Positions 1-61,100 of a stretch of DNA of 64,000 bases are shown one piece after another (position 1 is the stretch's first letter; each line of letters starts with the position of its first letter). Where the stretch lies: NCBI GenBank assembly GCA_023247055.1, contig JAHFHF010000006.1:600-64599 (forward strand), written 5' to 3'. The position numbers and the translations under genes were made by a program. This DNA comes from Candidatus Omnitrophota bacterium (GTDB lineage: Bacteria; Omnitrophota; Omnitrophia; Omnitrophales; Aquincolibacteriaceae). The notes below the pieces were generated by a model that worked only from the letters and a program-made list of their open reading frames with translations, did no database searches and had not been told where the DNA came from.

Positions 1-3000
1 CCGAACTCCGAAACGATTCCGGGCGAACTTGTGGTCAACGGCCGCTATTACCAATTTACTTCTTCGGGATACAATGACGAAGCGGCGGGCATGGAGGGCG
101 GATGGGCGCCCGATCCAAACTCCTACCGGTTTGTGGATGCCGCCGGCCAGCCGGATGAATATGGACAGCTGCCGGTCTATACTTCAAATCCGCAAACAGG
201 GCTGGTCACCCTGGCCGACGGCTTGACTTACCGCGTGGTTGCGCCGGATTCCGCCATCTCCGGCGGGGAACACGTGCTGCTGGTGGAAGTGCGCCAGGAC
301 AAACAAATCATCAATCCCTTCCAGCAAAGCGGCTGGAAGGCGCTCGAGATCGATGGCTTGTCTTATCTGGTTGAACTGCGCGATCAAAAACCTTATGCCC
401 TGCATCGCGAGGGCGTGACCGCGCTTTTTGATGAAGACGGCCGCATCGTGATCGACGGCAAGACTTACCGCATCGGCATGAACGACTATTATTACAATTC
501 AGTCAAAACGGGAGAGGATGGCCGGGTGCAGGCGGTTTATACCGATGAGCGCATCACCTACGGCAGTTATCCGAATATCCGCGTCTTTCCGCCCAATGCC
601 TTTACGGCCGCCGACCGCGAGTACTTCCTGGTGGAAGATTTGGGACAGGCGGAACTTTACCGCACCGAACATCATTGGCTCCCGGCGGGATATACCCAGA
701 TTTTTGGCAAAACCACGCTCAAGATTGATTACGAAGATTACGAAATTGCCAAAGTCACGCACCGCGGCTTGGAACTCGTGGCGTTTATCAAATTGGATGC
801 GCTTGGCAATCGCACGCAGATGGCCTATTACATGCGGCCCGACGATCAGGAAATCACGCTCTCCGGCGGACGCCGCTTCCGCATTGTGGGCGATGTGACC
901 GGTATTCAAAAATCGGCAACGCTGGTGGAGATCAGCCGCGCGGGCACGCTCGGCAGTGTGAGCGGTTTTGAAATCCTGAACGGTGAAAAACTGACGCCGG
1001 GTTACGGCTATACGCATGCAAGTCAGCCGCTGGCCGTCGTGCTGGACGGCGTGACCTATGAAGTCTTTCCGCGCAATGCCGCGGGCCGTATTTTTGCCAC
1101 CGACGGCCGCACGGTGTTGGCCAGCGATGCGGACGGTATTTTGAATATCAACGGCCGCCGTTTCCGTCTCGAAGAAGAAGCCGTCACGTATGAGATTTTC
1201 AACGATACGCGTGTTTCGCATTTGAACTACTACCTGACGGAAGACTCCTCGCGCCGCTACCGGTTGAATTCCGTGAGCGATGCGGCGGGCCTGCCGCAGG
1301 CTGAACTTCAGCCGCTGACAAGCGACGGAAAATATTTTGCCGCGGCGGACGAAGTCACGCTTTTTGACGGCCTGCGCTACCGCATGACGGTGAGCGCCAA
1401 AGGTGAGGTTTCCTTGACCGAAATCAATCCGCCGGCGCGGCGCGAAGCGCTGGTCAGCAAAGCTCCCGGTTTTCAATTGACGCGTCTGGCGCTGGAAGCG
1501 GGTGATGGTTCCGCCGGCCGCAATCAACTTGTGGCCAGCCGCCAGACGGGCGCCGTGACAACCGATACGCTGGGCCTGCGGCATACTCCGCTTGTGATTT
1601 TGGGCGAATCCTATGAAGTCGTGGAGCGCAGCGACGGCACGTTTGAATTTTATCCGGCCCGCAAAGTCAATGTGGATGAAATTCTGGCAGCTTCCGGCAT
1701 TCAAAATGCGGCGGAAGCCAATGCCTGGCGTGCGGCGGTGGAGAAGAGTTTCACGGCCCAAAGCGTTGCCAGCGATAAGATTTCGGGGACGGTTGTTCTG
1801 GACGGCATCCGCTACCGTATTTCCAAACATCCTGTGACCGGTGCGGTCGAACTTGCCGGCCGGGATACACGGGTCAAGCCGGACGCCGATCCCTTGGTGG
1901 CCGGCAGTATTGATTTGACGGTCTGGAAAAATACGGACGGGAGTTATTCGGTTTACTGGCCGCTGGACAAGACCGTTTACCGCGGCGACGGCGTCACCAA
2001 GACGGTGGTGCTGGGCAACTCGGTCAAATACGATATCGCTGAAGACGCGGCGGGACGCATCACGCTCAAGGAATCCACCCGGGTGATTGCCGCGCCGCCT
2101 TTGGCCCAGGTCATCGAAGTCTATGGCCGCAATTACGGTGTGGTCAAAAATACGGACGGCACGTACGCCTTCTATGACGGTTTGTATACGTATAAGTCGG
2201 ATGCCCAGGGCAAGACCGTGAAACTGGGCGAATTTATTCTGGCCAGCTATGACGACTACCTCAAACGCAGCGCCGAAGGGACGCTGGATGAAGTCCGCGG
2301 CGTGCTCTATGACATTGAGGCCGACGGACCGAACCATGTCCGCCTGGTTGATCATCGTGAGGCTGAAACCAAGATACAGCTTTTTGAATTGGGCGGGCGT
2401 TTCTATACCAGCGGCCGTGATACGGTTGGCCGTATCACGCTCAGTGACTATGCCACGGGGGAAATCGTCCTGCGTATTCCGCAGGGCACGAGCGAACTTG
2501 TCTTTGACCGCGAGACCTATACGTTGAGCGTTGACAGTGTGACCGGTTTTATCCGCCTGGTTTCGAGCCAAAGCCAGAATGCCTCGCGTGACGCGCAGGT
2601 TTTGCGCCTGGGCGAGCAAATCTATCTGGCTTCGGCCATGGGTGACGGCCGTTTCCAGTTTTATCTGGACGGGCAGCCGTTTATTTCCCAGGCGGCGGCC
2701 GGACGCGTGACGCTGGGCGACGGCCTTGAATATCATGTGACCGCCGGCGCTGACGGCCGCATTCAGCTTGAGCAAAAATATATTGACGCCTTTTCCGAGG
2801 AACGCATGTCCATTCTGCTGGACGGCCAGATCTATGACATCCTGCACACCGGCAGCCACCGCTGGCGCTTTACGGATGCCGCGGGATTGTCTTTCGACAG
2901 CGATGCCGTAACGATGAAAGTCACAATCGGCACGCTTATGTATGACTTGGTCGAACATGCGGACGGCAGCGTCACCGCGATTGCTCAAAACGATATTTCG

Positions 3001-6000
3001 ACCTCGCTCATCCGCAAGGTGGTCAATATTGGCGGCCTGCTTTATGTGGTCACGCGCCAGACGGACGGCCGCTTTGCCTTTACGGCCGGCAATGTCACGG
3101 CTTATGCCGCGCTCTCCGGCCGGCTGGATCTCGATAAGGTCTTTACGGTCACGTTCAACGAAACCACCGGCCAGGTGCGCGTCACGGAAACGGTCGTGCG
3201 CCGCAGTGCGCCGGTCGAACTCCTCGAAATCAAACAGCCGTCGCTGACGCGCCGCATGACAGTTGCCGGAAAAACCTATGACCTGAAGTATGACCGCGTG
3301 GACATGCTTGAAACCAGTCTGACCGGCGCGGAAATTCACAAACAGCGGCCGCTTTTCCAGTTTACGGATGCGGGTTCGGGGACGGTCTATGAAAACCGCA
3401 CTTATAAATTCGGCGGGTCGGTCGGGGCCTGCTCCAACGAAGAGTGCGAGAGCCAGGATATTTTAAGCACGGACCGTAATCAATTTGCCATGGATCTGCC
3501 GGAGGCCACGTTGAAACTCGAGGATTGGCCGCGGGTCTTTGCCTTTACCATCATGATCGACGGCAAATCCTACCTGATGTCCGAGACCGAGGCGCACAAG
3601 CATACGTTCTTCAGCGAGGACAAGTATTACCACTCGTGGATCCAGCCGTGCGGCGAAAAGTGTATTCAGGAGTTTGTCGAACTGCCCGACGGCAAAGGCG
3701 GTTTTGTTAAATTCGAACTTTATTACAGCAACAAGTACTACGACGAACCGGCTTCACAGGCGGATTTTGTGGGTGACCGGCTGCTGGTGAGAATTGACGA
3801 TGCGGCCGGGGCGGCCGACATCCGCGTCATTCCCAAGATGGAAATTCCGACCGAGCCGGTGGAAACGTCGCAGTATTATCTGGCGGAACGTTCGGCGCAG
3901 GACGGCCGTTTGACCCTGCGTGAGGAAGCGACCGGGCGTGCGTATGAGGTCAAACAGCGCATTTCGATCGACGGCCGCAATTACGAGGCGTCCGTGGATA
4001 GCGCAGCCGGCAAAGTTTCGCTGACCGAAGAACACGCGGCCAGCACGCGGGTGCCGGGGCGGCTGGCCGTGCGCGTGGGCCGGGATGCCGCCGGTTACAG
4101 TTATGAACTCAAGACCGACGGCCGGTTTGAATTTTCCGACGGCATTCATACCTATTACAGCACGCGCGAAACCGGCCGGCCGCAGGTCATCTTGTCGGAT
4201 GGAAACGTCTACACCATCGCTTACAACGCCGAAACCCAGGAATTGGCGTTGACCGAGCGCTATGAAATTTCCACGCCGGCCGGAGCGGGCCGTTTGAATG
4301 TCGGCGGTACGGTGTTTACGTATACGATCCGCGCCGATGGCAGCGTGCGTTTGACGGCCGGTACGAAAACCTATGACAGCCAGGGTGAGATGGACCTTGT
4401 CTCGGCGCTCAAACAGCCCATTCAGTACAAACTGCGCGAAGGACAAACACTGCCGGCCGGAGAAACGTCCACGGTGCCGGGTTATAGCGGCTTACGCTGG
4501 GAAGACGCGGGTATGGGCGTGACCAAGCCCTATCTGGTGAAGTTTGATCCGGCGGCAGGAACGTATACCGTGCGTGAAAAACCGCTGCCGGTGGACCCGC
4601 AGGACTATGTGGCCATCCGCGGTTTTGCCAAGACCTTGCAGGAAATCAAAGCTGCCTACGGCGCTTTCGGCGACACGAGTGATATTTATGATGCTGAAAA
4701 TCTGAGTTCACTCAATTACGACCGGCTCTATGACGCGGAGTATGAGCACAACAGCCTGAGCGGCTACAACAGCCAGTTCCTGTCTAACTTCAATGCCTAT
4801 GAACTGACGCTGCGCACAGGCCTTGCGCCCTGGCAGGACAGCCCGGTGGCCCTGGTGGATTACCGGGACGGCGTGCCGGACAGCAGCCTTGTCGGCTCTC
4901 AGGCGAAACTCGCGGGCGCTTATGACATTCTCTTTGATACGCCCAACCATACGCCGGGCAGCAGTTATCTGCCGGTGCGCGAATTGCAGGTCTATCAGGA
5001 TGAACTGCGCATCATGCACCCCTGGATTAACGGCGTGGAGCGTGTGTTTGAACCGGTCTACAACGACAATGCGGGCATTAGCCTGGAAACCGGTCCGTTT
5101 GCGGTTTTTGCCGGTGATACGTCAACCAACTACCGCAACCGCGGCGTGACGCTGAATGGCAAAGCCTATGACGTGGCCATGGATCCTGTGACCAAGGCGC
5201 CGGTCTTTACGGAACTTTCGTCCTACCGCGCGGCGAATGCGGATGAAGACGTTCTGCTGGTCTACCACCTCAAGGATGCGGAAGGCAACGAAACCGGCGT
5301 GGAGTACAATTTATTCGATGCCACATTTACCGCGCTGGATGTTTTCAAAGGGGTGATTCAGGCCCGCGCCAAACTTGGCGAGGCCTATGACTATAAGAAC
5401 CCGGCCAATACCTGGGAGAAGTTGTCCCTGGCGGACATCGAGGCCCAAGCGCAGACATTCCAGTACAATGCCCTGACGCGCAACTTTACCCTGCATGGCG
5501 TCAACTACCGCGTGTTTGAACAGCCGGTGAGCGGCGAAGTTTCAATTCTGCGCGCGGGCGGTACTCCGCCTGTGGTGCTGAACGCTCTGAATACGATCGA
5601 ACACAATGACCGGCTGTATGAAATCCGCAGGAATGAAGACGGCCGTATCATCCTGACCAGCGATACGGGGGAAGAGTTCCCGAGCGATCCGGACGGACAG
5701 ACGCTCAGTATCGACGATTACCATTTCGATATCAGCCGTGATCCGCTGACGCAGGCCTGGAAACTGAAGGAGCAGAGGGTTGAAAGCTACTACGGCGATT
5801 TGGCCGTTGTGGATGAAACTTCAGACGGCGGCGGCCGCATCTCTGCCCATTTTCATTCCGTCGCCAATCCGGGCGTACCCCTTGGGTTTGAAGTGCCGGG
5901 TGCCGGAACCCAGGTTGAATTTTTGAATCAAGCCGTGATTGCCGGGCCGGACGGGCAGGAACATGGTTTATTTGTGTTCCGGATTGGCAGCAGTTTTGTG

Positions 6001-13100: not shown

Positions 13101-16100
13101 CAGTTTGGACCGCCGTGACGGCACCGTGATTTTCAACGAAAGCCAGCCGCTGGTTTATGCCGTCGAAGTGCCGGAAGACGGCCTGTATTCCGTGGGCCTG
13201 GCGGCGCGCAATTTCTTCAAGGCAGGCCTGGATTGGCAGATCGAAGTGGACGTCTATGTGGATGATGAGATTTATCCGCGGACTTCATTTGACGTGCCTG
13301 CCGGCCTCAAAGACACGGCAAATTATGTCAATGACCTCGATTTGACGGCCGGAGCGCATACGATCCATTTTTACGTGCGCGACCTATACGGCGAGGGCGA
13401 CCACATCACGCAGAATCCGCATCCTGATCTTGCGGACCAGCCGGCCGGAGTGGGTTCCGCGCTTCTAGCCGAAAATTTTATTTTCCGGGCGCAGGGTTAC
13501 CGCAGTGACATGGATCTTAACCACAATCAAAGCATTGACACAGGCGATGAAACGATTCTAGCGGGCTTGATTCTGGCCGGGCCGGTCAGCGTGCAGACGC
13601 TCGAGCCCCTGCCCGTGAAAGTCCTGCGTCTGGCCGGCAAGTTTTACCGGGTCGAAATTTCCGGCACTGCCGTGACGCTGGTCTCCGGCAGTGAAAGCAT
13701 CACTACGGCCGTGGATGAAGTGATTGAGAAGAACGGCGTGTATTACCGCCTGCTGCAAGATGCCGCCGGCGAACTGGCCTTGGCGCGGGAACCGTCCGTC
13801 TACGCGTTCCGCGATCCTGCGTTTGAATTCGGCGCGAGCCGGGCGCTAGACCGTCCTGTTGTTTACGTGCGCGGCCGTTATCTGGAAATCGATCGGGCAC
13901 CGGACGGCCGCTGGCGCTTTAGCGATGCGGTTGGCGAATTCCTGTCCAATAGCGAAAAAACCGAAGTTCTGATCATCGACAAGCTTTTCAAAATCCAGGG
14001 CGCTCAGGCCGGCGAATTGTCCCTTGAAGAAGTCCACGCCGAAAGCCTGAAAACGGTGGATTTGGTGATCAATCTAACGGGGGAAGACTACAAGGTCCAG
14101 CGTGAAGGCAGCCAGTGGCGTTTTATCCTCGCGACGAATGCGGCCGTGAGTTATCTCTCCGTCGACGGTGTGGTCACGATTCAAGACAGACCCTACGCCT
14201 TGCGCTGGGATGATCAGCTTCAAGAGTTAGTTGCGGGCAATCACCCTGTTATTTCCAGTGATCTGGCCGGCCAGTCGGTGGTGCTCGACGGAGTGCTCTA
14301 TACGATTCGCATGGATACGGCCGATTCGATCAGCCTGCTGGGTGAAGGTCCGGATGCGCTCGCGGGCGGGACTGTCCCCGGAAACCTTACGCTGGCAGGG
14401 GCGGTTTATGCGGTCGAAAAACTCATCGACGGCCGTTATGTTTTCTCCGGTCAGGTGCAGAGCCGGCCGGCGGAAGAACCCATCCGGTTGTTTGACGGCA
14501 AGTTTTACAGCGTGGCGCATGACGGCGAGTATTTTACGCTCAGCCAAGGCGGAAAGAATTATTCCAATCGTCCGCGTTTAGCGAATTTGCCGGAAGTCGC
14601 ATCGACCGGTGATTTAACCGCGTTTGAATACTTGAAAGACGGTACGGTGCGGCCGGAGATCAGCGATGTCTATGACTCTCAATCCGGCACGCTGACGTCC
14701 GGCGTTTTTACGGTTCCGGGGGATCAAAACTATACGTGGACCTGGGAAATGGCCGCGGGCGGCGAGAGCGGTACCCTGAAAATTCTCAATGCATCCGGAA
14801 CCGCTGCCCTGCAAGAAACCATCAGTGAATCCATGATGTCGATGCCGGGCGGCTGGACTTTAAATTTTCTCAACCCGTTTATTTCGGGCAAGCATGCCGG
14901 CTATAAAGTCAGCTACAACACCGGAACGAATACGCTTACTCTCACGCCCGCCGGCATCACCGGCAATTTTACCGCGCCGGATGGAACGGCTTATCTTTGG
15001 GGCCTGACGCGGCATGAGCGCAAAGACTCCGGAGGGCAGCCGGATACGCTCAATGACGGTTATGTTTTCCGCCTGAGTCAAGCCGGCGGGACGGGCCTTT
15101 ATGAAAAAACCGGTATCGTTGCGAAGTCTCAAGAACTGAATGCGGATTTCACGGGTCTTGTTCAAATGGCCGGCTCGGGCTGGATGGTGCATCTGGATGA
15201 AAACAGCGGCAAACTGCGTTTTGATCCCAAGCATTCGAGCGGGAGTTTCATTTCGGCTGTGGACGATGAGCGCTACATCTGGTCGATCGATTGGACCCAG
15301 ACCGGAGAATTTATGAAGGGGTGGACCTTTACGCTGGAGGATGAGGCCGGCGTCAATACGTTTACGCGTTCCGGTACGCTGAACAGTGATCCGACTTTGG
15401 CGATGCCTGAGACGTTTCCACAGCCGTTTGAGGGTGTTTACGCGCTCGCGAATGCCGTGGAATATCAAATCAGCTTTGATCCGCAGACGAACCGTATGAC
15501 CCTGGCGCCGCAGCGCGTGCTGGTGGAAGAAAGTTCTGACCGGATTTTGATTGACGGGCGCTGGTTTGCGATCAGCGGGACGGATACCGGCAGTCTTGTG
15601 CTGACGAATGAAATTTTGGAAGAGGCCGGTCAATACCGTTTAGCCGGCGAGCGTTATGCCCAGCAGGTTGAAACGAGCATGAACGAGATGGGTTTCCCCG
15701 GGCCGCAGGTGCTGGTGCTGACGGATGAAAACGGCCGGCGCTTTGAAAGCGTTTTGAATACCACATCCGCCGCGACCGGCCAATACGGGTATAACGCCTA
15801 TGGTTACTGGGGGCCGATGTATCAATACACCCATACGTACACGGTCACGATCAAAAACATGACGTTTGAAGTGCGCCTGCCGCCCTATGATCCCTACGAC
15901 TCCAATCCGCCGCCGCTTGAAAATTATACGCTCGTGCCGTATCAGGCCGCGGCCGTAACGGCGGTTGTGCCGGCGGGGACGCTGGTGAAAATCGGCGGCG
16001 CAATTTATGCGATTACCCCCAAGCCGGGCGTTGAAAATGTCTACCTGATTAGCGACGGCCAAACGCTGACGGAAGCTGGGCTTGGCGAGCCGGTGCGTTT

Positions 16101-19100
16101 GAATGGCATCGAATACGTCATCCGCCGCGCGCCTTCCGGAGCGCTCAGTATGATCCAGCAGGTGCAAACGCTGTCCGGGCACCAGGTGATTTTGGAAGGT
16201 GTCCGGTATTCGGTCGAAGAGCAGACGGGCCGGGTCATTCTCTCCGATGGTGTTCAGTCGTTTGAGTCCGATGACGCCAAAGCGAAGATTACGGTCAAAG
16301 ACCGCCTTTATGATCTTGTGCGCACGGAAGCCGGCGCCCTGGTGCTGGTCGAATCCGGCGTGGTCCGCTCGTACCAAACCCTGGTTTTCCAAAATAAAAC
16401 CTACGATGTCCTGCGCAATAGCGACGGTTCGATTTCGCTGCTCTATCACAAGGCAACGCATGGCACGTTGGCGCCAAAAGAATCCGTCCAGATGCCTGCG
16501 CAATTGCGCTATAAAGGCGGAAATTACACCGTGAGCACGCTGGAAGACGGCCGGCTTCAGATCGAAGGTCCCGAAGGTGTTTCCACCAGCGCGGCGGAAA
16601 CGGGCCTGATTGATTTTGACGGGAAACTCTGGCAGGCCGTGCGGCTTGCGGACGGCCGCTGGACGATTGAGGGAACATTCGAAAGCGCTCCGGCCTCCGG
16701 CCAACCGCTGTTTTTTGACGGAAAGATTTACACGCTTGCCATGCAAGCCAATCAATTCGTGCTTTCCGACGGACGCGCTCACTATACGGCGGATGTCTCG
16801 GGTTTTGTGAATTTGAACGGCCGCACGTTCTTCTGGAGCGGGACCGGGCTGGAGGATTTCCAGATGTTCAACCGGCCGTATCTTGGCAGAACCGATACGG
16901 AAATCCAGCTTGAAGGTTTGAACCTGGCCTATCAGATTGAATATTCCATGATGACGGGCCCGGTCCTTAAAATCACGGATTCTGAACGCAATGCGGTTTA
17001 TACCAGCTTTACGGATCAAACCAGGGCCTTCATGGATATCCGGGGCGTTCGCTACGAGATTACGGGCAGCTTGTATGACAGCTTCGGCGAGGGGTTTGGC
17101 CTGCGGCCGGCCGCCGGAAACGTGCCGGCTTCTGCGCCCGCCGAGGAAGGAACCCGGCTTGTGGTGGAAAACCGCATTCTCAGCGTAAGCCTCAAAGCGG
17201 GCACCGGCGATATCTATCTGGCGTCCGACGGTACGGAGACGCTGGAAGTCCGGCTCGGTGAGACGCTCAACGTCAACGGCCTTCCTTATATGCTTAGTCT
17301 GCCAGCCTCCGGCGAACTCAAATTCAGCCTGAGCAGCCGCCAGATCAGTCTGGCGCAGTTGGGGCTGGATTCGACGTCCTATCTGGCTTTTGAAACCGCG
17401 GCCGGCGAATGGGCCTTCCAGGGAACTTACGATCCCACGGGTGAATTGAGCACAAGCACGGGCGGCGGCACGCTGGTCCAAATCGGCGATCTGAAATATC
17501 ACATCGAACGCCTCCCTGACGGCGGCCTCAAACTGACCGAAACCGAAGACAGCGCGCCGGTGGTTTATGAAGATCAACTCTTCCGCAGCGACTTGCAGGC
17601 CCGCACGATCCGCATTTCCGGCAAGATCTACCGGCTCGCACTTGCGGCGGACGGGGACTGGGTCTTGAGTGAAGATTACGAAACTTCGCAGGCCCTGCAG
17701 CCGGCGGTGGAAATCGGCGGCCGCAAACTGCAGTACCGTTTAGAAGACGCGCAGGTGATCTTGACGGACGGGAAAAACAGCTTCCGCAGCAGCCGCGACG
17801 GCTCAAACGTGACGATCGACCATCGCCGCTATGCGATCCAGCGCAGCGGCAGCGCGATTACGCTTTCCGAGCCGTCTCTGCCGTACAGCCAGACGATCGA
17901 TGCGCTTGGCGCAATTTGGCTGATCCGCCGCGACGCGTCCGGAAAAATCATGGCCGACAATCCCGAAACCCAGGAAACGTTTGCCGGCGATACGGCTGGT
18001 CTCGTGATTACGATTCGCGGCGTGCAGTTTGATATCACGGGCGAGGAAGGCCGGCGGATTTTCACGCCGCGTATTTCAGCCGAACCCACCCTAGCCGACG
18101 GCGCTTTCTTGCTGGCCGGCCGGATGTTCTTTTACAAGACCGAAGACGGGCAATTGACCGTGACGTATGCGGACAGCGGGGCCGCGGCCGGCGCAGCGGA
18201 CGAAAATGCCGGACTGATCGAAATCGCCGGTACCGTTTATCAAGTGCAGCGCACGAGCGGCCGGCTTGAATTCCATAAGCAAGCCTTTGAAGAAGCTCAG
18301 GAAATTTCAGGAGCGGTGTTTTACATCAACGGAACGATTTATGAGGTTCAGTATGATGAGACTGCCGGGTCTTTCGAAGTACGCAGCGGCCAGAAAACTT
18401 ACACCAGCGATCCGGCCACGGGGCATATTTTGATCGGCGAAATTGCGGCTGAAATCCGCCGCGATACCGCGAGCGGCGAAATTACGATCACGGTGCCCAC
18501 AGCAGCCAGCGTCAAGCGCGCCGACCAGGCGGTTGAACTCAAGGGCCAGATTTATTGGCTGACGCGCCTGGAAGCCGGCCGGTACGAAGTTTATGATCCG
18601 GCTGCGAAAACGCCGCATGCGTCCCGCCTTGAACAAATTGACGGCGTCTGGCTACCGGTGGTGGATCTGGCCGGCAGTGTTTACCGCGTGGTCGAAGACC
18701 GCGGTGAACGCATGCGTCTGGAAGAGGTGACAGAGGAATTTATTTCCGACGACCGCTTCAAGGTGCTGGCCGGCGGTAAGGAATACACGATCGGCCAGGA
18801 TTCCGTGGATCAACGTTTCTATCTCGATGACGGCACGCACCGTTTCTATGAAACCGGGGTGGATGGCATTATCAAGATCGGCGCTGATTCCTTTAGCGTG
18901 CGTGAACTGGCCGGCCGGCGCTTGTTTAATCCGGAGGTGGTCAAGCGCGCCGATCTGGATCAAAACGGCGAATTCAACGCCGAGGATGCGCGCATCTTGA
19001 CGCGCCTGGCCAGCCACTACAAAGACATCAACGGCGACGGTCTGGTCGATCAGCAGGATATTGACGCGTTAAATAAAATTATTGATCTCACGCCTGAGAT

Positions 19101-22100: not shown

Positions 22101-25100
22101 GCGGCAAGTCACGATAGATGACCATCTTTACACGATTTCACGGCGTGATTTTACCGAGACGTATGATCTGGATATCAACCGGGACGAGGCGTTCAGTCAA
22201 GGCGACAGCGGCGCCCTGCTGGAAGCTTTGCTCAGTAACGGGCTTGTCAGCGAAGAAGACTTGGCTCGTTACCGCGCGCAGGGCGGAACCGCGGGATTGG
22301 GCGCTAGCGGCGGCGAGGGCGAGGGATCGTTTGCGGGCGGAGAGAGTGCCGGAGGGGGCGCAGGCATGCCGGCCGGCGGGGAAACTGGCGCAGGTTCAGG
22401 CACGTCCTATCAGGTTTCGGAAGACGAAGGCGTGGATTTGAGCGGCCTGCATGTCAGCATTCCGGGCCGCCTGCCGCGTTCGACCGTGGACATTACCGGC
22501 GACGGCCGCGGTGATATTGCGGACATCAAACGTATCCAAGAAATTCTGTTTGCCGTGCGCCGCGGTGAAATTGTCCAGCCGCGTGATTACGAGAAGGCGG
22601 ATGTTACCGGGGATGGAAAAGTTACGGATGCCGACTGGAAAGCGATTGAAACCGCGCGGCTCAAAGCGGCGCGCAGTGACGTGACCCAAGATGGCGTTAC
22701 GGATTACCGCGATGTTGAAGCGATCCGCCACATTGACCGCGAAGAAGTCATCCGGGCCACGGCGTCTGAAATCGCGAAAGCGGACCTGAACCACAACGGC
22801 GCGCTGGACGCTGCGGATGTGGCGCAGCTTGAGCAGACCATGAAGCATATGCATGAGCTGGATCTTGATTTCGACGGCAAGATTGTTTTGGCGGACGAAC
22901 TGGCGGCTTTTGACAAAGCCAAAGAATTTTACGATCTGGGCTTGAGCCTGAGCGCCGAACAGTTTGCGCGGGCGGATATCGATCAGGACGGTTTGATCAC
23001 GCCGGCGGATCTGCGCATTTATGAAAAACTGACCCAGCAGTGGGATGCTGCCGGCACGCCGCGCAATGTTTTTGATCTGACCAACGACGGCGTGGTGGAT
23101 GGCAGCGATGAGCAGCGCATGGTTGATCTTTTGATGGCCGAGGGCCTCAAAATCACTGAAGAAGAAAAAGTCCTCGGCGATATCAACCGCGACGGCATAA
23201 CGGACAGCCGTGATTTGGATCTCTATACGCTGATTTATCAAAATGAAAACCGGCTGAATATTGATGGGGTGGCGGGCATCAATGCGCAGGATGTTAATAA
23301 AGCCGCCTCGATCCGCAGCTGGCTGGCCGCGCGTAATGCGCCGGTGCGCGGGCTGACTCGGTTGAAAGATCTTCAAGATGCGGGCGTGGACACCGCCAAT
23401 CCGGATGCGGTTGCCGCGCATCTCAACCAGCTGATTTCAACCACGCAGGCCAAGATTGCCGACGTCAACGGCGATGGTCTGATCGATGAAAAAGATTTGG
23501 CCCGCGCCCGCGAAGTCGAGGAAATCGTCAGTTACGGTATGGACCGCGGCTTTGCGCTGGACATGCGTTTCGATCTTAACCAGGACGGCAAAGTCGATGA
23601 CAGTGATCTGGCGGCGCTGATGACCGCCATTTCCAACCAGATTGTGCATGATGTGAATGCGGACGGCGCGGTCAACCAGACGGATGTGGATCTTTTTGAC
23701 CGCATGATCCGCTATCAACGCACGGGCTATACGGTGATGCCGGATGATCTGGAGAATGCCGACATTGACCATAGCGGCGCTTTTGATGCGGGCGATGTGA
23801 CGAATTTCACAAACGCGCTGCCATTCTACCGCGATGTGACCGGCGATAAACGCCTGGATAGTGCGGATCTGCTCGCGGTCCGTAAAGCCAAGGCCTTGCA
23901 GGAAGCCGGTTACACGGACCGCTCCTCCGGCGAGCCGGTTTACCGGCCGCTGACGCTGGATCTGCTGCGCCGTGCGGATCTGACCCGCGATAACGTGATC
24001 GACAGCGCGGATAGCGCTTTTCTGGCGCAGGCCATTCAAGGCAATCTGGATCTGACCGGTGATTTTGCCGTGACGATCGAGGACCAGCTGCGGCTCGGCC
24101 AGTATTCGCCGTGGGGGCTGGGCGTGAAGCAAGTCGAACGTGCAGACATTGATCAGGACAATCTTATCGGCGCGCGTGATTATGCCGGCCTGCTGGCGGC
24201 GCTCGGCGGCATTGACCGCGCGGATGTCACCGGTGACGGCAAGGTCGATGCCAATGATCTCAAAGATTTACGCCGGCTGGTCGAAGCGGCCAAGCTGAAA
24301 GTGACCGGCCGCGATGTGGTGCTGGCGGATGTGACCCGGGACCGCAAGGTCGATGTGGCGGACGTGACGAAAGTCATTGAAAGCGTACGGGCTTTGCAGG
24401 CCTTTGACATCACCGGCGACCGCATGGTCAATGCGCTGGATGAACAGGCGCTTTTCTTCCTGTGGGGCGTCGAGCCGCTGGATCTGTTAAACCAAAGCGA
24501 AGCCGCTTTGGCTGAGCTGGAAGCGCGTGCGGCCGCTGCGGTCGACGCCGGGGAAGCCCGCGCCATCGAACGCGCGGCCCAAGGTATTTTTAATCAGGCC
24601 CTGACCATGGAAGAAACCGGCAAAGCGATTGCGCGCATGCTGCTCAGCCCCAGCGAATCGCAACAGATGCTGCAGGAAATTGCGCAGATCATGGCGCGTC
24701 TTTCCGGACACCGCAGCGCCATCCAAGCCGTGCTCGCTGCGCTCACCGGACAAGCAGCGCTGGCCCCCAGCCTCGCAAGCCAGCTGGAAGATGCCCTCAA
24801 AGTCCTCAAAGAAACTTTGGTTGAAGCGCGCGCGGCTGAAAGTTCGGATGCGGTGGATTCATTGGTGCTTTCGGTCGAGCCCGTGATTCAAAATATGCGT
24901 ACACTGGCCGGGACGCAGGGACAGGTCCAGCCAGGAACTCAGCCGGACCTGTCCCTGGCTGCCTATCTGGATCAGGGCGAGGCTGTTTTTGCTGAACTCT
25001 CCGCGTTGGCGCAGTCCGTGCGGCAGGCGGAAGAGACGATGGCAGGCCTTGCCGAACAAACCCGCAATGCGCTGGCGCTGGCGGATTGGATGAGCCGGCA

Positions 25101-28100
25101 GTTTGAAGCCGGGGCAGATACCAGCCCTGCTTTTGTGTCGCTGCTGGCTTTTGGCCGGAATGCCCTTGCCGAGTCGCAGCGTGCGGCCCAGGCTGCGCGC
25201 GCCCGGGCGTCGGGTCTTCTGGCACAGATGCCGGCGAATACCGCGGCCCTGCAGGCCCAGGAAACTTTGCGGGGCGCCCAGAGCCGTTTGGATCAAGCGC
25301 TGGAAACCCTCACGCAAAGTTTGCATGAGGCCCAGGCTGCCGAGAACGGTGCCATGCCTCTGGTGAAGGAAGCTCAGAGCAAACTCGACCACATGCGGAT
25401 TTTGGCGGCGCAGTCCGTGACCACGGCCCTCGCAGGCACGGCCGCAGCGCTCGTGACCCAGCTGGCCCGGTCCAATCTCGGCCGCGAACCGACACCGGAT
25501 GAAATCAGAGCCGCCGTGGCGGGCCTCGCGGCAGGAGAAACACTGGAACAGACGGCGGGCCGCTTGCTGGCAATTTCCGATGCGGCCCTGATCAAAGCCG
25601 CGCTGGATCCGCTGCGGGATAAAACCTCCCTGGATGAAAGTGCTCTGGGCGCGCGCTACCAGGCCATGACCGCAGGCCTCTGGCCATTGGAAAGTGCGAC
25701 TCAGTCCGTGATGAATTATTTTGGACCGGCCATGGATTGGCCGGCCGAATTGGCACGCTTGCAGCGGGGGGCCGACGAAATTCTCGCAGATTTAGAGGCG
25801 GCTCTCGCTGAAATGGACCGCTTGCTTTATTTGAATCCCGGCCATGCGGAACTGAACGCCAATGCTCTGCTCATGACCGATGTTCTGAATCAGGCGGCCG
25901 GCCTGGCTGAAGACCTGCGGGAATTCCCGCAGGTGCTGACGCCGGAAATCGAAAATTTCAACCTTGCCAAAGCCACGGCCGAAGCCAGCCTCGCGTCTGA
26001 CGAAAATCTGCAGGTCCATCTGGCCGCTGCCGAGCTTTTGACCGGACGCATCGACGCCATGACTGAAACTGCGGATAGGGCGCAAGCGCTCCGCTGGCTG
26101 GAAACTTTTGAAACCACGGCCGCCGGTCCTGTGCCTCAGCAGATCAACGCACTTGTGGCGGCCGCCAGAACCAAAGTGGAGAGCGCGCAGCAGGTGGAGG
26201 CCGGCATCCGTCTGCTTGAAGCTGCGGCCGAACAAACAGACGCAACCGCCGAATTTATCCGCGCGCAAGCCGGCACGATGAACCGTGAAATGCTGATCGG
26301 CGTCGTGGATCAGCTTCTGGGGCAGTTGGAGGCGGCCGCGGCACAGGCTTCAGGCGTGATCAGTCAGTATCCGGACACGGCGGCGTTCAGCCGTTTGAGC
26401 GGCCGTCCGGAAGCGCTGATGGCCCAGATTAAAGCCGCTCACGAAGCCATGCTGGCTGAATTATTCCATGAGCGGGTGGTCACAAATCGCGGGGCCGATT
26501 CCGTTGAAACCGCCGCGCTTTTGGCCGGTGCTGTGAACCGGTTGGGCGCAATCGCTGCGGACAATGGAGTGGCAATTCATGAATTGCCACTACGGATGCT
26601 TTATACGCTGATAAATAACACACGATCCAAAGTCGCTGTGCTGGAAAGTGAACTGGCTACGGCCGTCAATGCCGGCGTGGATGCCGGGGCTAATTTGGCC
26701 TCAATTCGCGACTACCTGGCCCGTATTGACCAAACTGCGGCGGCCTTGAACGCCCGCGCTGCGGCTTTGGGCGCGGATGTGAATGCGCCGCTGACGGCGG
26801 CTGACAAGAATACCGCTTTAATTTCGATTCTCAGCGGACTTGAAACGCAATCCCAGGCTGCGAATGCGACGGCCTTGACCCTCAAACAAATCCAGCAGGC
26901 TGTGCGCGAGATCCAGGGACAAGTCCAGTTAGCCGCTCAAGTGCCGGGGACTCAGGGAGAGGTCCAGTTAGCGGCTCAGATGGACCTGTCCCTGCTCACG
27001 GTTAAAAATGCACTGCTGCGTGCCACCGGCGGCGCGTCTCTGGTGGAAGAAACGGTTTATCTGGCCGCGGCCGGGCGCTTGTCGCTGGTGCTTGCCAACA
27101 ACACGAATGATTTGACCTTATTGAACCGGCTCGAAGTCTTTGCCGGTGATTTTGCGGTTCAAGCCGCCGCGGCCCGCGCAAAATTGGCTCAGCTTGCTGC
27201 CGCAGACAGCACGGGCGTCTATGGCTTCAGCGCCAATCTGCCTTCACTCGCCGCGCTCGAAGCCGATACCGGCAAAACCAAGGCGCTTGTGACCGAAAGA
27301 CTGGCGCATTTGGCCGGACAGCCGCAGGCTTGGTCCACGGATCCGCTGGTGCGCGCGCTGCATGAAGCCGAAGCCCTGCAAAAAGCCATCATGGTCCAAC
27401 AGGGACAGGTCCAAACAACTCAACAGGACCTGTCCCTTAAGACTTCGCTCGCGATCCTGGAAGCGATTGGGGAGGCCGTGACCAGCACGATCGCGGCTTT
27501 GACGGAATCCGCCCGTCAGGATGCGGCCGCTTTTGAAGACCGCCAGCGGCTGCTTGAGAATTACCGCGGTCGTTTTGATTTCTCCGAACAAGCCGCTCTG
27601 CTTCAAAGTGAAGAAACCATAGCGGCGGCGGAGCAGGCGCGTGCAGCCGAGCAAGCCGCATTCGAGCGTCACCTCGCCCTGCTGCAGGACCTTGAAACCC
27701 AGGATGAAACCCTGGCCCGGGCTTTGGCGGATATGGCGATTGACGATGCTCAAGAATTGCGCGATTTGGGCGCTGAGCCGGATCTTGCGATCGTGGAACG
27801 CCTGGAAATGCAGGCTGAATCCGCGGAAGCGCGGCAGGATTCCGGAGCGCAGATTGAAGAACTGGCCGAGGGCCTCGCCGCCTGGATCGAACGGCTGGAG
27901 ACCATGACGGCCGGTCTGAATACCAACGAGGAGTTGGCGGTGCGTGAAGGCTTGCTTGATCTGGCGGATGCCGTTACGGCGCATTGGCAGGAACTGCTGA
28001 CCGAGCCGTCTGCGGCCGAGGTGCGCCAAAAAGTCGATGCGCTGCGCAGCGTTGTGACGCAAGACCTGCAGGCGCTTGAGACCACAAAAGGGGCTGCGGA

Positions 28101-58100: not shown

Positions 58101-61100
58101 CATTTCCAGCATGCTGGCAGGAGGCTCCAACCTGCAAATGCTTTATCGCGGCAGCCTCGATTTGTATGCGGGGCTTGGTGCGGCCGGCGAAGATCAGCCC
58201 AATACGAATGCGGCCATCGCTGCTGGGAAGTTCCAATCTGGATTCGATTGGGACACGACCGGTTCCAATAGGCACGCGGGAACGGAGCGTAACCGCCTGA
58301 CCGGTGAAATCTTCCAGCGCCTGATCGGCGTCAATCCGGCGGCAAAAGACTATCAGCCGACTCTAAACCTGTACTTTACGGGTGAACAGACTATCGGCGC
58401 GCTCAATTTTGACATACCGTCTTACGAATATATCTGGAACCCGGTGACACTGCAGGTGGACCGCCTGCCACTCTCAATCAACGCCAATCTGAAAGTGATC
58501 GAAAAAGCCGACGTGGCTAGAGTCGACGGCGGTTTGTCCGACCGCGCTTTTGATACGCTCGACCAAAAAGACAATGCGCCGCCGCTGGAAGTCACCACCG
58601 AAATTATTAACCGCGAAGTCAACCTTCTGACCGAAACGCTCACCCGGTCGCTGGATGCAAAAAACCAAGCGATACGTTTTGCCGTCAACGCCCTGCTGAA
58701 AGGCGCGGATGGCTTAGGGACAACCACCGGCTTGCAGTTTTATGAAAACATGGAAGACCGCGGCGGCTACTATCAGGTTTACGAATTTCTCTTCACCGAC
58801 CAAATGCCGCCGGCCGCGGCTATCGACGAAGTCGCAGCGGCCTATAAAAAACTGGCATTGTCCAAAGGATTGTCGTCCGCCGGTCTGGCTGGTTTCCTGA
58901 AAAACCTTACGAATGCGGGCAGTGTGCGGACGGATAATCTGTCCGGCGGCGCGCAAAATGCGCGTCAGCAGGGCTATTCCAAGAGTTTGGCTGACAATAT
59001 CGTGAACACGATTGTGTATTCAGCGGCTGTCATGGCGACCAATATTTGGGGTGGTGGGGGCCTGGGCGCCGCTTCGATGGATGGCGCGCTGATCGCGCCG
59101 GAGGGCGATCTCATCACGCCGCGTTTCGACTCCTCTGACCAGACCAACCGGGGCATCGTCAACCCAATGATCGAAGACGGTGAACACCGCTACACGCTGA
59201 AACTTCTGAAGGCCTATTCCACCAGCTTGACGGAATTCGCCACGCAGTTTGATCCGCCGGTGGAAGCCGACGATTACCGCGCCAATCAGGAAGCCAAAGA
59301 AACGGGCCAGACCCCGGATCAGACGATTGACGAACTCATCCGCAACGACGTCGGGCTGACGCATACGATTGAGAATTACGTAGCAACCCGCATCCAGTCC
59401 GGACAAATTGCTGCCGTCAGTGCGCGCGACTTCCTTGAAGAGTATCTTTGGGAACTTGCTCCGACGACCGGGACGCAGCCCAAGAATCTGCACGTTGGCC
59501 GCGAAAAAGCGCGCGAGATGTTCTTTGAATTGCCTGAGCTCCTGCGGAAGTTCTACAGCGAGTCGCACGGGGCCAAGGCCGACAGCGAAGCGCTCGGATA
59601 TCTTGAAAGCCTGGTCAATTACCTTGTGCTGCAAAACGGAAATCCCGTGGGCAGTGACTTTAGCGGCTTGGAAATGAAAGACAAAATCAAGAAACTGGCC
59701 GAAGACCCCACGTACAGCATTGATTACGTTTACGATTCCTGGCTCTTTAAGGCGGTTGAGAAAATCATTGCGGCGACGCTGAATTACCAAAACGAGAAAC
59801 AGGAAGCCTTTAAGGATTTTTATAAGGAAGTGCTTTATACCAATCAATCGACGACCAGCCTTGGCGATGTCATGGGGCTTCTGACGCACAACATCGTCAC
59901 GACCGCCGCGATTGGCGGCACGGATACCCGCGTCGATGTACGGCCGCTTTTGGATGAAGTTAAAATGGAATACCGTGCTTTTATCACGGAGCGCCAGGAA
60001 GAAGCGAAGCGCACGGCCACCGAACTTTCGCTGCAGAGCCAGCAGCGGCATGTCTCGCTGGCCGGCGGCGACCGCGGCGCGCTTGAGGGTGATCTGGATG
60101 TCCTGGCTTATGATAAACGCGAAAAAGAACTGAAAGACTTGCGCGAATTTTTGGGTTGGAAGCCGGTGGCTAGCGGCGGTTACGAATTGCCGCTTCCCAC
60201 GGCCACGGCACCGGCTGACGACTGGGAAGATTACTGGGACCGTAAAAAGTTCACGGAAGGCTGGACCGAAGCTCCCAGCGCATTTCAAGAAGCCGCTCCG
60301 GCTGGCGAACTTTACATCCTTCCCACCAAAGCCGACAAGGCCCTGCCTGCGAGCCAATATGCCGCAGGCACGCTGGATAACTATGACTTCGGCCTTGAAA
60401 AACTTTTCCACAATACGCTTGATTCGATCCAGCTCTTGTCGGAACAGACCGTAGCCGGCCTCGAGCAGCTCAGCGCCGCCGAACCGCCCATTCCGATGAA
60501 GGACCTTGTGGGGATTGAGCCTGGCGCCGAAACGCCGCTCAATCAGCTTTTCGCCAAATACTTTACACCGGTTTGGGATAAGGGGCGTTTGGAATATAGC
60601 GGCAATATGACAGGCGATATGACGATCCGGCTTTCCAACATGGACAGCCTGACTAAAGACGTCCTGGCCTACGCCGAAAAAATCCTTAAAGACCCGAAGT
60701 CGGCGATTAACGATCTCGATTCTGGCCTGCTGGATTTTGAAGACATCTTTTCAAAATTGCGCGAGTTGGATAACTCCCTGGCCCTTTTCCACGAAACCGA
60801 GTTCAAACGTGTCTATGACAATAGCGTGCTGGTCTCAAGCGCCAACCCATTCGATCCGGCAGGCCTTGGCGATATCTATGATTTTGCCCATGCGCGCACC
60901 GTGCCCGTGGCGCAGGTCGATCATATGCTTGATTTTGTCAGTCAGCAGATGAACCGCTATTTGGATGTGACGCGCGTCTTTTTGGCCGGTTATAACCAGC
61001 TGCGTCAGTCATTTGGCCTGAACCAGGCTGCGGAAGAGCTGCGCTTTGATCTTGAGACCATGGATCTTGACAAAGGTTTGGACGAAATCCGCAAAGTGGA

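Follow-up and report, generated by a model that had tools for sequence, protein, structure and literature searches.

We analyzed a 64,000-nt stretch of DNA (hereafter, the window) from a Candidatus Omnitrophota bacterium (assembly GCA_023247055.1, contig JAHFHF010000006.1, positions 600 to 64,599 of the forward strand), which lies within a giant gene and carries three short palindromic units close to one another. Our interpretation, to which we assign a probability of roughly three in four, is that these units are in-frame insertions that were mobilized by a REP-associated tyrosine transposase (RAYT) and are tolerated as extra peptide, and that they resemble REPINs, in which two REPs (repetitive extragenic palindromes) are paired in inverted orientation. 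As judged by sequence comparison, the same arms form in-frame insertions in essential Omnitrophota genes, where they are read in different frames, and they also occur as identical dispersed copies and on both sides of genes predicted to encode RAYTs. Among the possibilities listed in a first-pass annotation of the window, an in-frame palindromic insertion element of the REP type or of the MITE type (a miniature transposable element with inverted repeats) is the one that the evidence favors.

Under this interpretation, a unit would consist of two inverted REPs of 12-13 nt, (C)AGGGACAGGTCC, separated by a spacer that is free to vary. A RAYT, which is an HUH/Y1 enzyme, would act on the single-stranded hairpin, and intragenic copies would persist only if they were a multiple of three in length, free of stop codons, and situated in a tolerant part of the protein. 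The three copies would have inserted where a giant gene of the Omnitrophota type encodes a helical stretch under little constraint, adding 13-27 residues each, and one of them would afterwards have undergone a partial tandem duplication. The arms would have stayed near-identical because only intact arms are recognized and copied, while the loops drift. The source genome would presumably carry such a RAYT, which would have moved the three copies, and the copies themselves are probably neutral passengers rather than functional.

Structure of the three units

Copy 1 (24916-24957, plus strand) is 42 nt long, with perfect 13-bp arms at 24916-24928 and 24945-24957, a 16-nt loop, and the peptide QGQVQPGTQPDLSL. 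Copy 2 is composite: a complete 42-nt unit, copy 2b (26953-26994, plus strand; left arm CAGGGAGAGGTCC, 16-nt loop, right arm GGACCTGTCCCTG), is preceded by copy 2a (26914-26952, plus strand), a 39-nt partial tandem duplicate of it that is made up of a left arm, CAGGGACAAGTCC, and a loop. Together they form an 81-nt hairpin whose 55-nt loop holds a nested 7-bp stem, AGCCGCT/AGCGGCT, which is made perfectly complementary by one C/G difference between the duplicates, centered in AGCSGCT. Copy 3 (27400-27438, plus strand) is 39 nt long, with 12-bp perfect arms, a 13-nt loop, and the peptide QGQVQTTQQDLSL. The canonical unit length is 42 nt (13+16+13), the loop of copy 3 being 3 nt shorter, and the units have a loop core, AACTCA/GCTCAG, in common. 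We recovered the coordinates that the first-pass annotation had reported, its loop sizes (16, 55, and 13 nt) and its peptides of the form QGQVQ...DLSL, and the units measure 42, 81, and 39 nt, each divisible by 3 as it had stated. Its description of the arms as exact reverse complements needs correction, as perfect 13-bp pairing is limited to copy 1: the right arm of copy 3 ends in CTT in place of CTG (a match at 12 of 13 positions, with 12 bp perfect), and the left arm of copy 2 also matches at 12 of 13 positions, with CAA replacing CAG. The sub-duplication that it placed inside the 55-nt loop is real, but consists of the partial tandem copy of left arm and loop standing ahead of a complete unit; Tandem Repeats Finder did not score it.

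A search of both strands of the 64 kb with CAGGGACAGGTCC at up to one mismatch, which the annotation had proposed as a check, returned 7 matches against 0.04 expected from shuffles. All 7 are confined to the three unit sites, within 2.5 kb, and there is no other arm at this threshold in the window; allowing 3 mismatches revealed no decayed arm pairs there and added only scattered weak matches. The arms are free of stop codons in every frame on both strands. Because the palindrome length is a multiple of 3, the arms are complementary codon by codon (CAG/CTG, GGA/TCC, CAG/CTG, GTC/GAC), and QGQV mirrors DLSL. The annotation had instead placed the two arms in different codon phases, which is mistaken, as the left-arm codons are the reverse complements of the right-arm codons.

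The point that it had drawn from codon phase, namely that the palindrome is a property of the nucleotide sequence, was right on other grounds. The units are nucleotide-level entities because rare codons are reused in them, their arms are conserved above their loops, and the same arms are read in other frames in other genes (see below). GGA, which makes up 12% of glycine codons, is used at all four arm glycines of the QG[QE]V type, and TCC (21% of serine codons) at three of three arm positions; further rare codons, ACT (8%), TTA (4%), and CCA (6%), occur in the loops. Given the peptides, the probability of the palindromic codons is 4.4e-4 per unit. Differences between units affect 2 of 52 arm positions versus 14 of 32 loop positions (Fisher P = 1e-5), and the protein sequences flanking the three units have no detectable similarity to one another.

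Comparison with a homologous protein

A word-indexed search of 5.8 billion proteins with residues 8200-9300 of the translated gene found no relative; in an exhaustive search with HMMER, 1.84 billion representatives yielded one homolog for the same residues. This protein, P0001, is a partial 5,283-aa sequence from a Candidatus Omnitrophica metagenome-assembled genome (MAG), and it is 25% identical to the query and collinear with it over 1,043 residues. It has gaps at the unit sites: one clean gap of 10 residues at copy 1, two gaps (4 and 6 residues) at the edges of copy 2, and two (2 and 4 residues) at copy 3. The query has 39 extra residues in this alignment, and 22 of them fall inside the 54 residues encoded by the units (permutation P = 5e-5). 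This comparison, supportive rather than clean, suggests that the units are extra relative to the sole detectable homolog. The first-pass annotation had reasoned that the symmetry could be called incidental if orthologs kept the peptide with other codons and no palindrome; P0001 lacks the arm peptides altogether, save for a lone GPVP at residue 342, far outside the aligned region.

A family of repeats in genomes, metagenomes, and viruses

We scanned one genome per species with the pattern GGGACARGTCC-N4-34-GGACYTGTCCC and found at least 116 loci (L001-L116) in many phyla, against about 4 expected in random sequence, a null that would be higher, perhaps tens, if it allowed for the abundance of perfect hairpins; the apparent enrichment of the core across phyla refers to random sequence. 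The matches form genome-specific multi-copy families. Among the genome matches listed, 126 of 131 elements lie outside long open reading frames (ORFs), and in 65 of the 131 the perfect pairing extends 0-1 nt past the searched 11-nt core. The bases flanking the core are non-random (G or A at -1, A at -3, C at +1), which suggests a relatedness of the elements beyond the core itself. The CAGGGACAGGTCC subfamily is frequently intragenic. The annotation had treated abundance of the 13-mer elsewhere as evidence against a meaningful palindrome, an argument that has to be inverted, since a mobile repeat predicts the abundance that was found.

The 11-nt core, GGGACAGGTCC/GGACCTGTCCC, stands at the center of genome-specific palindromic repeat families, for example in L061 (1050-4548), L053, L063, L086, and L095. 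In the Bacillaceae genera Fredinandcohnia and Sutcliffiella, the arms are palindromic in their own right, with the nested form TGGGACA-NN-GGGACAGGTCCC-NN-TGTCCCA, and the genes enclosed by the doublets are ordinary metabolic ones rather than transposases. An extra GGGAC also lies directly upstream of the left arm in copy 1 of the window (CCGGGACG, 24905-24915), in copy 2b (CGGGGACT, 26942-26952), and in a copy within a HemB gene (CAGGGACAGGAC, L160 3575-3590). Repeated GGGAC motifs are likewise a feature of the Bacillaceae elements, and the extra motif may belong to the sequence that is recognized.

The metagenome scan, performed with the 13/12-mer arms, gave 79 loci. In one sample, at least nine contigs carry an identical 32-nt element in both orientations and with unrelated flanks, which indicates a dispersed repeat that was active recently; the constant arm in this set is the 12-nt sequence AGGGACAGGTCC. 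The commonest metagenome variant has a 13+8+13 layout (34 bp), and spacers in the family range from 5 to more than 50 nt. In some arrays two or three left arms stand ahead of one right arm (L133 1000-1058 and L008 7291-7346), as in copy 2 of the window, and the arm, or REP, seems to be the unit that duplicates. The viral collection yielded a sole match, a palindrome with the same core at 10192-10246 of L198 (IMGVR_UViG_3300034024_000023).

A Pfam scan covered ten metagenome ORFs that span an element. Four have a single domain match that crosses the element (HemB, Aconitase_C, the heptosyltransferase domain Glyco_transf_9, and Flavoprotein), one has a VitK2_biosynth match that is divided in two where the element lies, and in the others the element lies outside or between domains or the ORF has no family match. 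The HemB copy coincides with a gap of 14-15 residues relative to solved structures. The arms are read in all three frames, with frame-dependent peptides (QGQV/DLSL, GTGP/GPVP, and RDRS/TCP). Intra-ORF elements show no excess of arm-to-arm lengths divisible by 3 (7 of 25), which means that the insertion boundaries often do not coincide exactly with the ends of the arms. We saw no direct repeats of the kind left by target-site duplication around the two identical gatB copies described below or around the window copies. We also considered translational bypass of the type known from 'byp' elements, and dropped it, as the frame is the same on both sides wherever a Pfam domain spans the element; the different-frame cases that we examined are gene boundaries, and one of these exposed the RAYT gene described next.

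RAYT genes flanked by the repeat

The ORF beside the element in metagenome locus L162 is predicted to encode a Y1 HUH transposase (Pfam Y1_Tnp, E = 1.2e-13) and scores 82.4 bits on the NCBIfam model for REP-associated tyrosine transposases (NF047646), the curated cut-off of which is 80. HVH and YIERNPV motifs are present in it, and a hairpin with AGGGACAGGTCC arms lies on either side (1202-1244 and 1962-2006). We used this protein in a phmmer search of every ORF of 199 loci, 195 of which had been retrieved through the palindrome, and it identified two further genes. A RAYT-like ORF in L174, 36% identical to that of L162, scores 65 bits on NF047646, below the cut-off, and is also flanked on both sides by the same arms (1629-1684 and 2130-2186). 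In L056, a Syntrophomonas MAG, a broken RAYT-like gene ends just before a GGGAC-rich doublet. A regular-expression screen for RAYT motifs gave no match, as its pattern was too strict. No DDE transposase with the same inverted repeats was seen in the 1.26 Mb of loci, in which the associated transposases are all of the Y1 type. A RAYT flanked on both sides by the repeat constitutes a REPtron arrangement, which we found for the repeat family, in metagenome loci.

Insertions in gatA and gatB of Omnitrophota

A MAG that groups with Omnitrophota by its GatB (L066/L197) has the element twice within gatB in the form CAGGGACAGGTCC-N10-GGACCTGTCCCTG, with arms that are the exact 13-mer of the window and a 10-nt loop. 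The two copies are translated in two frames, as QGQVLKKEDLSL at one site and TGTGPEKRGPVPE at the other, and the gatA gene of the same MAG has a 75-nt variant (L197 9811-9885). All three elements coincide with gaps relative to solved GatA and GatB structures. These are the only copies in the 21.5 kb of L197, and they lie within 1.26 kb, a local clustering like that in the window. The thirteenth base of the arm is C in all six copies of the window and L197.

Three of 30 Omnitrophota orthologs have the insert at the second gatB site, one of them in decayed form, and the 27 that lack it are 79-84% identical to the query. An independent assembly with a GatB that is 87% identical has both gatB sites filled; in this assembly, the loop at site 2 is longer by a 36-nt module with similarity to the gatA element's loop. 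The conservation of the gatB elements between the two MAGs is uninformative, as the flanking codons are conserved equally. The module, which is 36-39 nt long and GC-rich (CCACCGC..TTGGCGGGGTCCCGTCCA..GGCGGGAAAA), is nested in the element loop at L196 1485-1552 and L197 9811-9885; one MAG has it at gatB site 2, where its relative does not, and the gatA copy also contains it. Further insertion or conversion thus seems to be concentrated in the loops of the elements.

Relation to known palindromic repeats

The REPtron arrangement defines the REPIN-RAYT system, which is well described in Proteobacteria (Bertels & Rainey 2011, PMC3116915; PMC3337134; PMC5581495). Like REPs and REPINs, the elements described here are short palindromes paired in inverted orientation around a variable spacer, with the capacity to form a hairpin and with arms far better conserved than the spacers. 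In one metagenome sample identical copies are dispersed over unrelated loci, copies cluster locally in the window and in L197, and two RAYT-like genes (L162 and L174) have the repeat on both sides. The elements differ from REPs and REPINs in that the window copies are intragenic and in frame rather than extragenic (the wider family being mostly outside long ORFs), in that the arms are just 12-13 nt and whole units 32-42 nt, and in the lack of a consistent GTAG/CGTC tag, the bases flanking the arms being GACG, GATC, and CCAA in the window and TATT and AAAG in L162. Their hosts, Omnitrophota and other non-proteobacterial lineages, are different as well.

REPs located wholly within ORFs have been reported to add a few amino acids, with insertion inferred from shorter homologs, and several may occur in one gene (PMC3733652). 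The units share with these intra-ORF REPs (Di Nocera, De Gregorio & Rocco 2013, PMC3733652) the position inside ORFs, the added residues, and the multiple copies per gene. The intra-ORF REPs, however, carry GTAG/CGTC tags and come mainly from Proteobacteria (PMC3733652), and PMC3733652 contains no GGGAC/GTCCC string, so the present family is not in that paper. Rickettsia palindromic elements (RPEs) are about 100-150 bp long, encode 30-50 residues of a conserved peptide, and are confined to Rickettsia (PMC10969869; PMC3733652). As with RPEs, we found in-frame palindromes at tolerant positions of unrelated and often essential genes whose proteins remain intact (the giant gene, GatA, GatB, HemB, and other enzymes), but the units are 32-81 nt long, have a frame-dependent peptide, occur in Omnitrophota and other hosts, and have no sequence similarity to RPEs. 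Bacterial MITEs such as Correia/NEMIS, ERIC, and Nezha are 70-300 bp in length, produce target-site duplications, and derive from DDE insertion sequences (PMC10969869). The units are like them in being non-autonomous, in having terminal inverted repeats (the 12-13-nt arms at the unit ends), and in sometimes forming in-frame fusions, and unlike them in their size (32-81 nt), in the lack of a visible duplication, and in the associated enzyme, a Y1 HUH transposase.

A text search of the literature with 10- and 11-mers found no description of the core sequence in a bacterial context, and Omnitrophota have not been linked there with palindromic repeats other than CRISPR. As both REPs within ORFs and in-frame RPEs are already documented, what would be new is a short, tagless family in Omnitrophota and other non-proteobacteria.

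Weighing the explanations

Several observations weigh against RAYT-mediated insertion of the window copies. In the source organism, copies are known from the giant gene alone (three, within 2.5 kb) and the RAYT is postulated, while L162 and L174 are metagenome contigs that are tied to the window only by identical 12-nt arms. This core does not flank RAYT homologs of about 54% identity in other lineages; the association with it is therefore specific to certain RAYTs and not family-wide. The tag of most REP families, GTAG/CGTC, is absent from the arms. At 25% identity the gaps of P0001 at copies 2 and 3 are only partial, and with this protein as its only comparator the giant gene offers no clean empty site at high identity. 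In gatB, the net gain between filled and empty sites is 9 residues rather than 12, which leaves the insertion boundaries undefined. Lastly, the three window copies lie close together and share one frame, as would also be expected if one copy had been inserted and then duplicated or converted locally.

This last point is the core of the alternative that fares best, in which one ancient insertion, or a hairpin formed de novo by template switching, was spread by local duplication or gene conversion with no transposase in this genome. Besides the tight cluster and the single frame, the common AACTCA/GCTCAG loop core and the 11 nt of upstream flank common to copies 1 and 2b fit such a history, and copy 2 shows that local tandem duplication occurs, so that it clearly contributed there. 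The arms, however, are shared base for base with elements in unrelated genomes, RAYT-flanking ones among them, and the sequence is therefore not of local origin. The divergence of about 44% in the loops versus about 4% in the arms is also unlike simple duplication with neutral decay, and we consider it unlikely that the units arose in this way alone.

A hairpin may also have been selected for a role in the giant gene, such as RNA polymerase or ribosome pausing, an RNase site, or an antisense RNA structure, perhaps after co-option from a mobile repeat. The folding check suggested by the first-pass annotation did reveal great stability, as all three units fold as strong RNA hairpins (-27 to -45 kcal/mol, z -3.0 to -5.8; folded stretches 24906-24967, 26904-27004, and 27390-27448). 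The minus-strand RNA folds better in every case, at -39, -52.4, and -29.1 kcal/mol for copies 1, 2, and 3 compared with -34, -45.4, and -26.7 kcal/mol on the plus strand; on the minus strand the A-C mismatch of copy 2 turns into a G-U pair and the stem of copy 1 grows to 18 bp, and the nested stem of copy 2 rests on a single C/G difference. Against such a role, Rfam gave no relevant match in the region or in 18 related loci, identical elements are scattered over intergenic DNA and, at arbitrary positions, over the loops of unrelated enzymes, and just three copies, in one 2.5-kb stretch, are present in at least 64 kb of gene. We regard selection of the hairpin as very unlikely; it might be a secondary use, for which the slightly better minus-strand folds are the sole positive indication.

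It is highly improbable that QGQVQ-x-DLSL is a functional peptide motif of a diverged protein repeat and that the DNA palindrome is incidental to it. The three copies do share a frame and their end peptides, and both outer-arm substitutions are synonymous, but the unit flanks are non-homologous, rare codons are reused, and P0001 lacks the peptides and is gapped at the sites. In addition, the same DNA gives GTGP...GPVP or RDRS...TCP in other genes, and the element is also found between genes and around transposase genes. The regulatory-hairpin and chance-peptide possibilities raised in the annotation found no support.

We give hardly any credence to site-specific recombinase targets of the lox/FRT type (13-bp inverted arms around a short spacer) that would serve programmed rearrangement of the giant gene. 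The commonest metagenome variant, at 34 bp, does have the loxP/FRT layout, but family spacers vary from 5 to more than 50 nt and are unequal among the window copies, which rules out strand exchange between these; inverting the DNA between the copies would truncate the protein, as the antisense frame there is closed, and the enzymes found nearby belong to the Y1 HUH transposases rather than to the recombinases. We dismiss an artefact of assembly or sequencing, as the element occurs at orthologous gatB sites in two independent assemblies and at about 200 loci from many projects, with the reading frame preserved.

Implications

If the units are RAYT-mobilized insertions, REPIN-type selfish hairpins would be active outside Proteobacteria, in uncultivated lineages such as Omnitrophota, and would be tolerated inside ORFs that range from those of housekeeping enzymes to a gene of more than 64 kb. 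The indels of 12-27 residues that such units cause could mislead alignment and phylogeny. They form strong mRNA and DNA hairpins, they may be hot spots for further insertion and duplication, and they could provide natural presence/absence markers for strain tracking in metagenomes.

A much broader proposal, which we offer as speculation and consider doubtful, is that the core GGGACAGGTCC marks one REPIN lineage that extends over many phyla (Omnitrophota, Bacillota, Acidobacteriota, Planctomycetota, Thermotogota, and others) and has stayed constant although the associated RAYTs share only about 36% identity. Within Omnitrophota, colonization of coding sequence by this lineage would be routine, in all three frames and in essential enzymes as well as giant genes, and together with loop-nested insertions and tandem duplications it would be a source of new coding sequence and of giant-gene growth. 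Conservation of the core across phyla would, if true, point to a not-yet-understood constraint on REP-RAYT recognition.

The host gene and minor observations

The host frame occupies positions 1-63999 on the plus strand, with 21,333 codons and no stop, and runs off both ends of the window as part of the giant gene. A Pfam scan of the window found sparse domains, namely dockerin/EF-hand repeats (at about 8.3 kb, 19 kb, and 21-24.9 kb), an ILEI domain at about 12.4 kb, and a Peptidase_C39 domain at about 35 kb, and none in the region around the three units. A single-sequence AlphaFold2 model of residues 8901-9200 was set aside, as its predicted local distance difference test score (pLDDT) of 41 made it unusable for placing the units in loops.

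In an alignment of Omnitrophota GatB proteins (P0002-P0031), whose lengths range from 480 to 539 aa, the beta-hairpin loop at site 1 (about 108-125 of P0002) contains inserts of variable length and is a hot spot across Omnitrophota. Several of these site-1 inserts look like translated palindromes of other families, and the GatB insert of L199 (10001-11503) is an imperfect hairpin of -35 kcal/mol that lacks perfect arms. On the minus strand of the window, the codon-aligned frame has long open stretches (for example 499-3339, 15640-17577, and 59020-60411), with up to 987 codons free of stops; these stretches probably reflect the composition of the gene on the plus strand and are not genes themselves.

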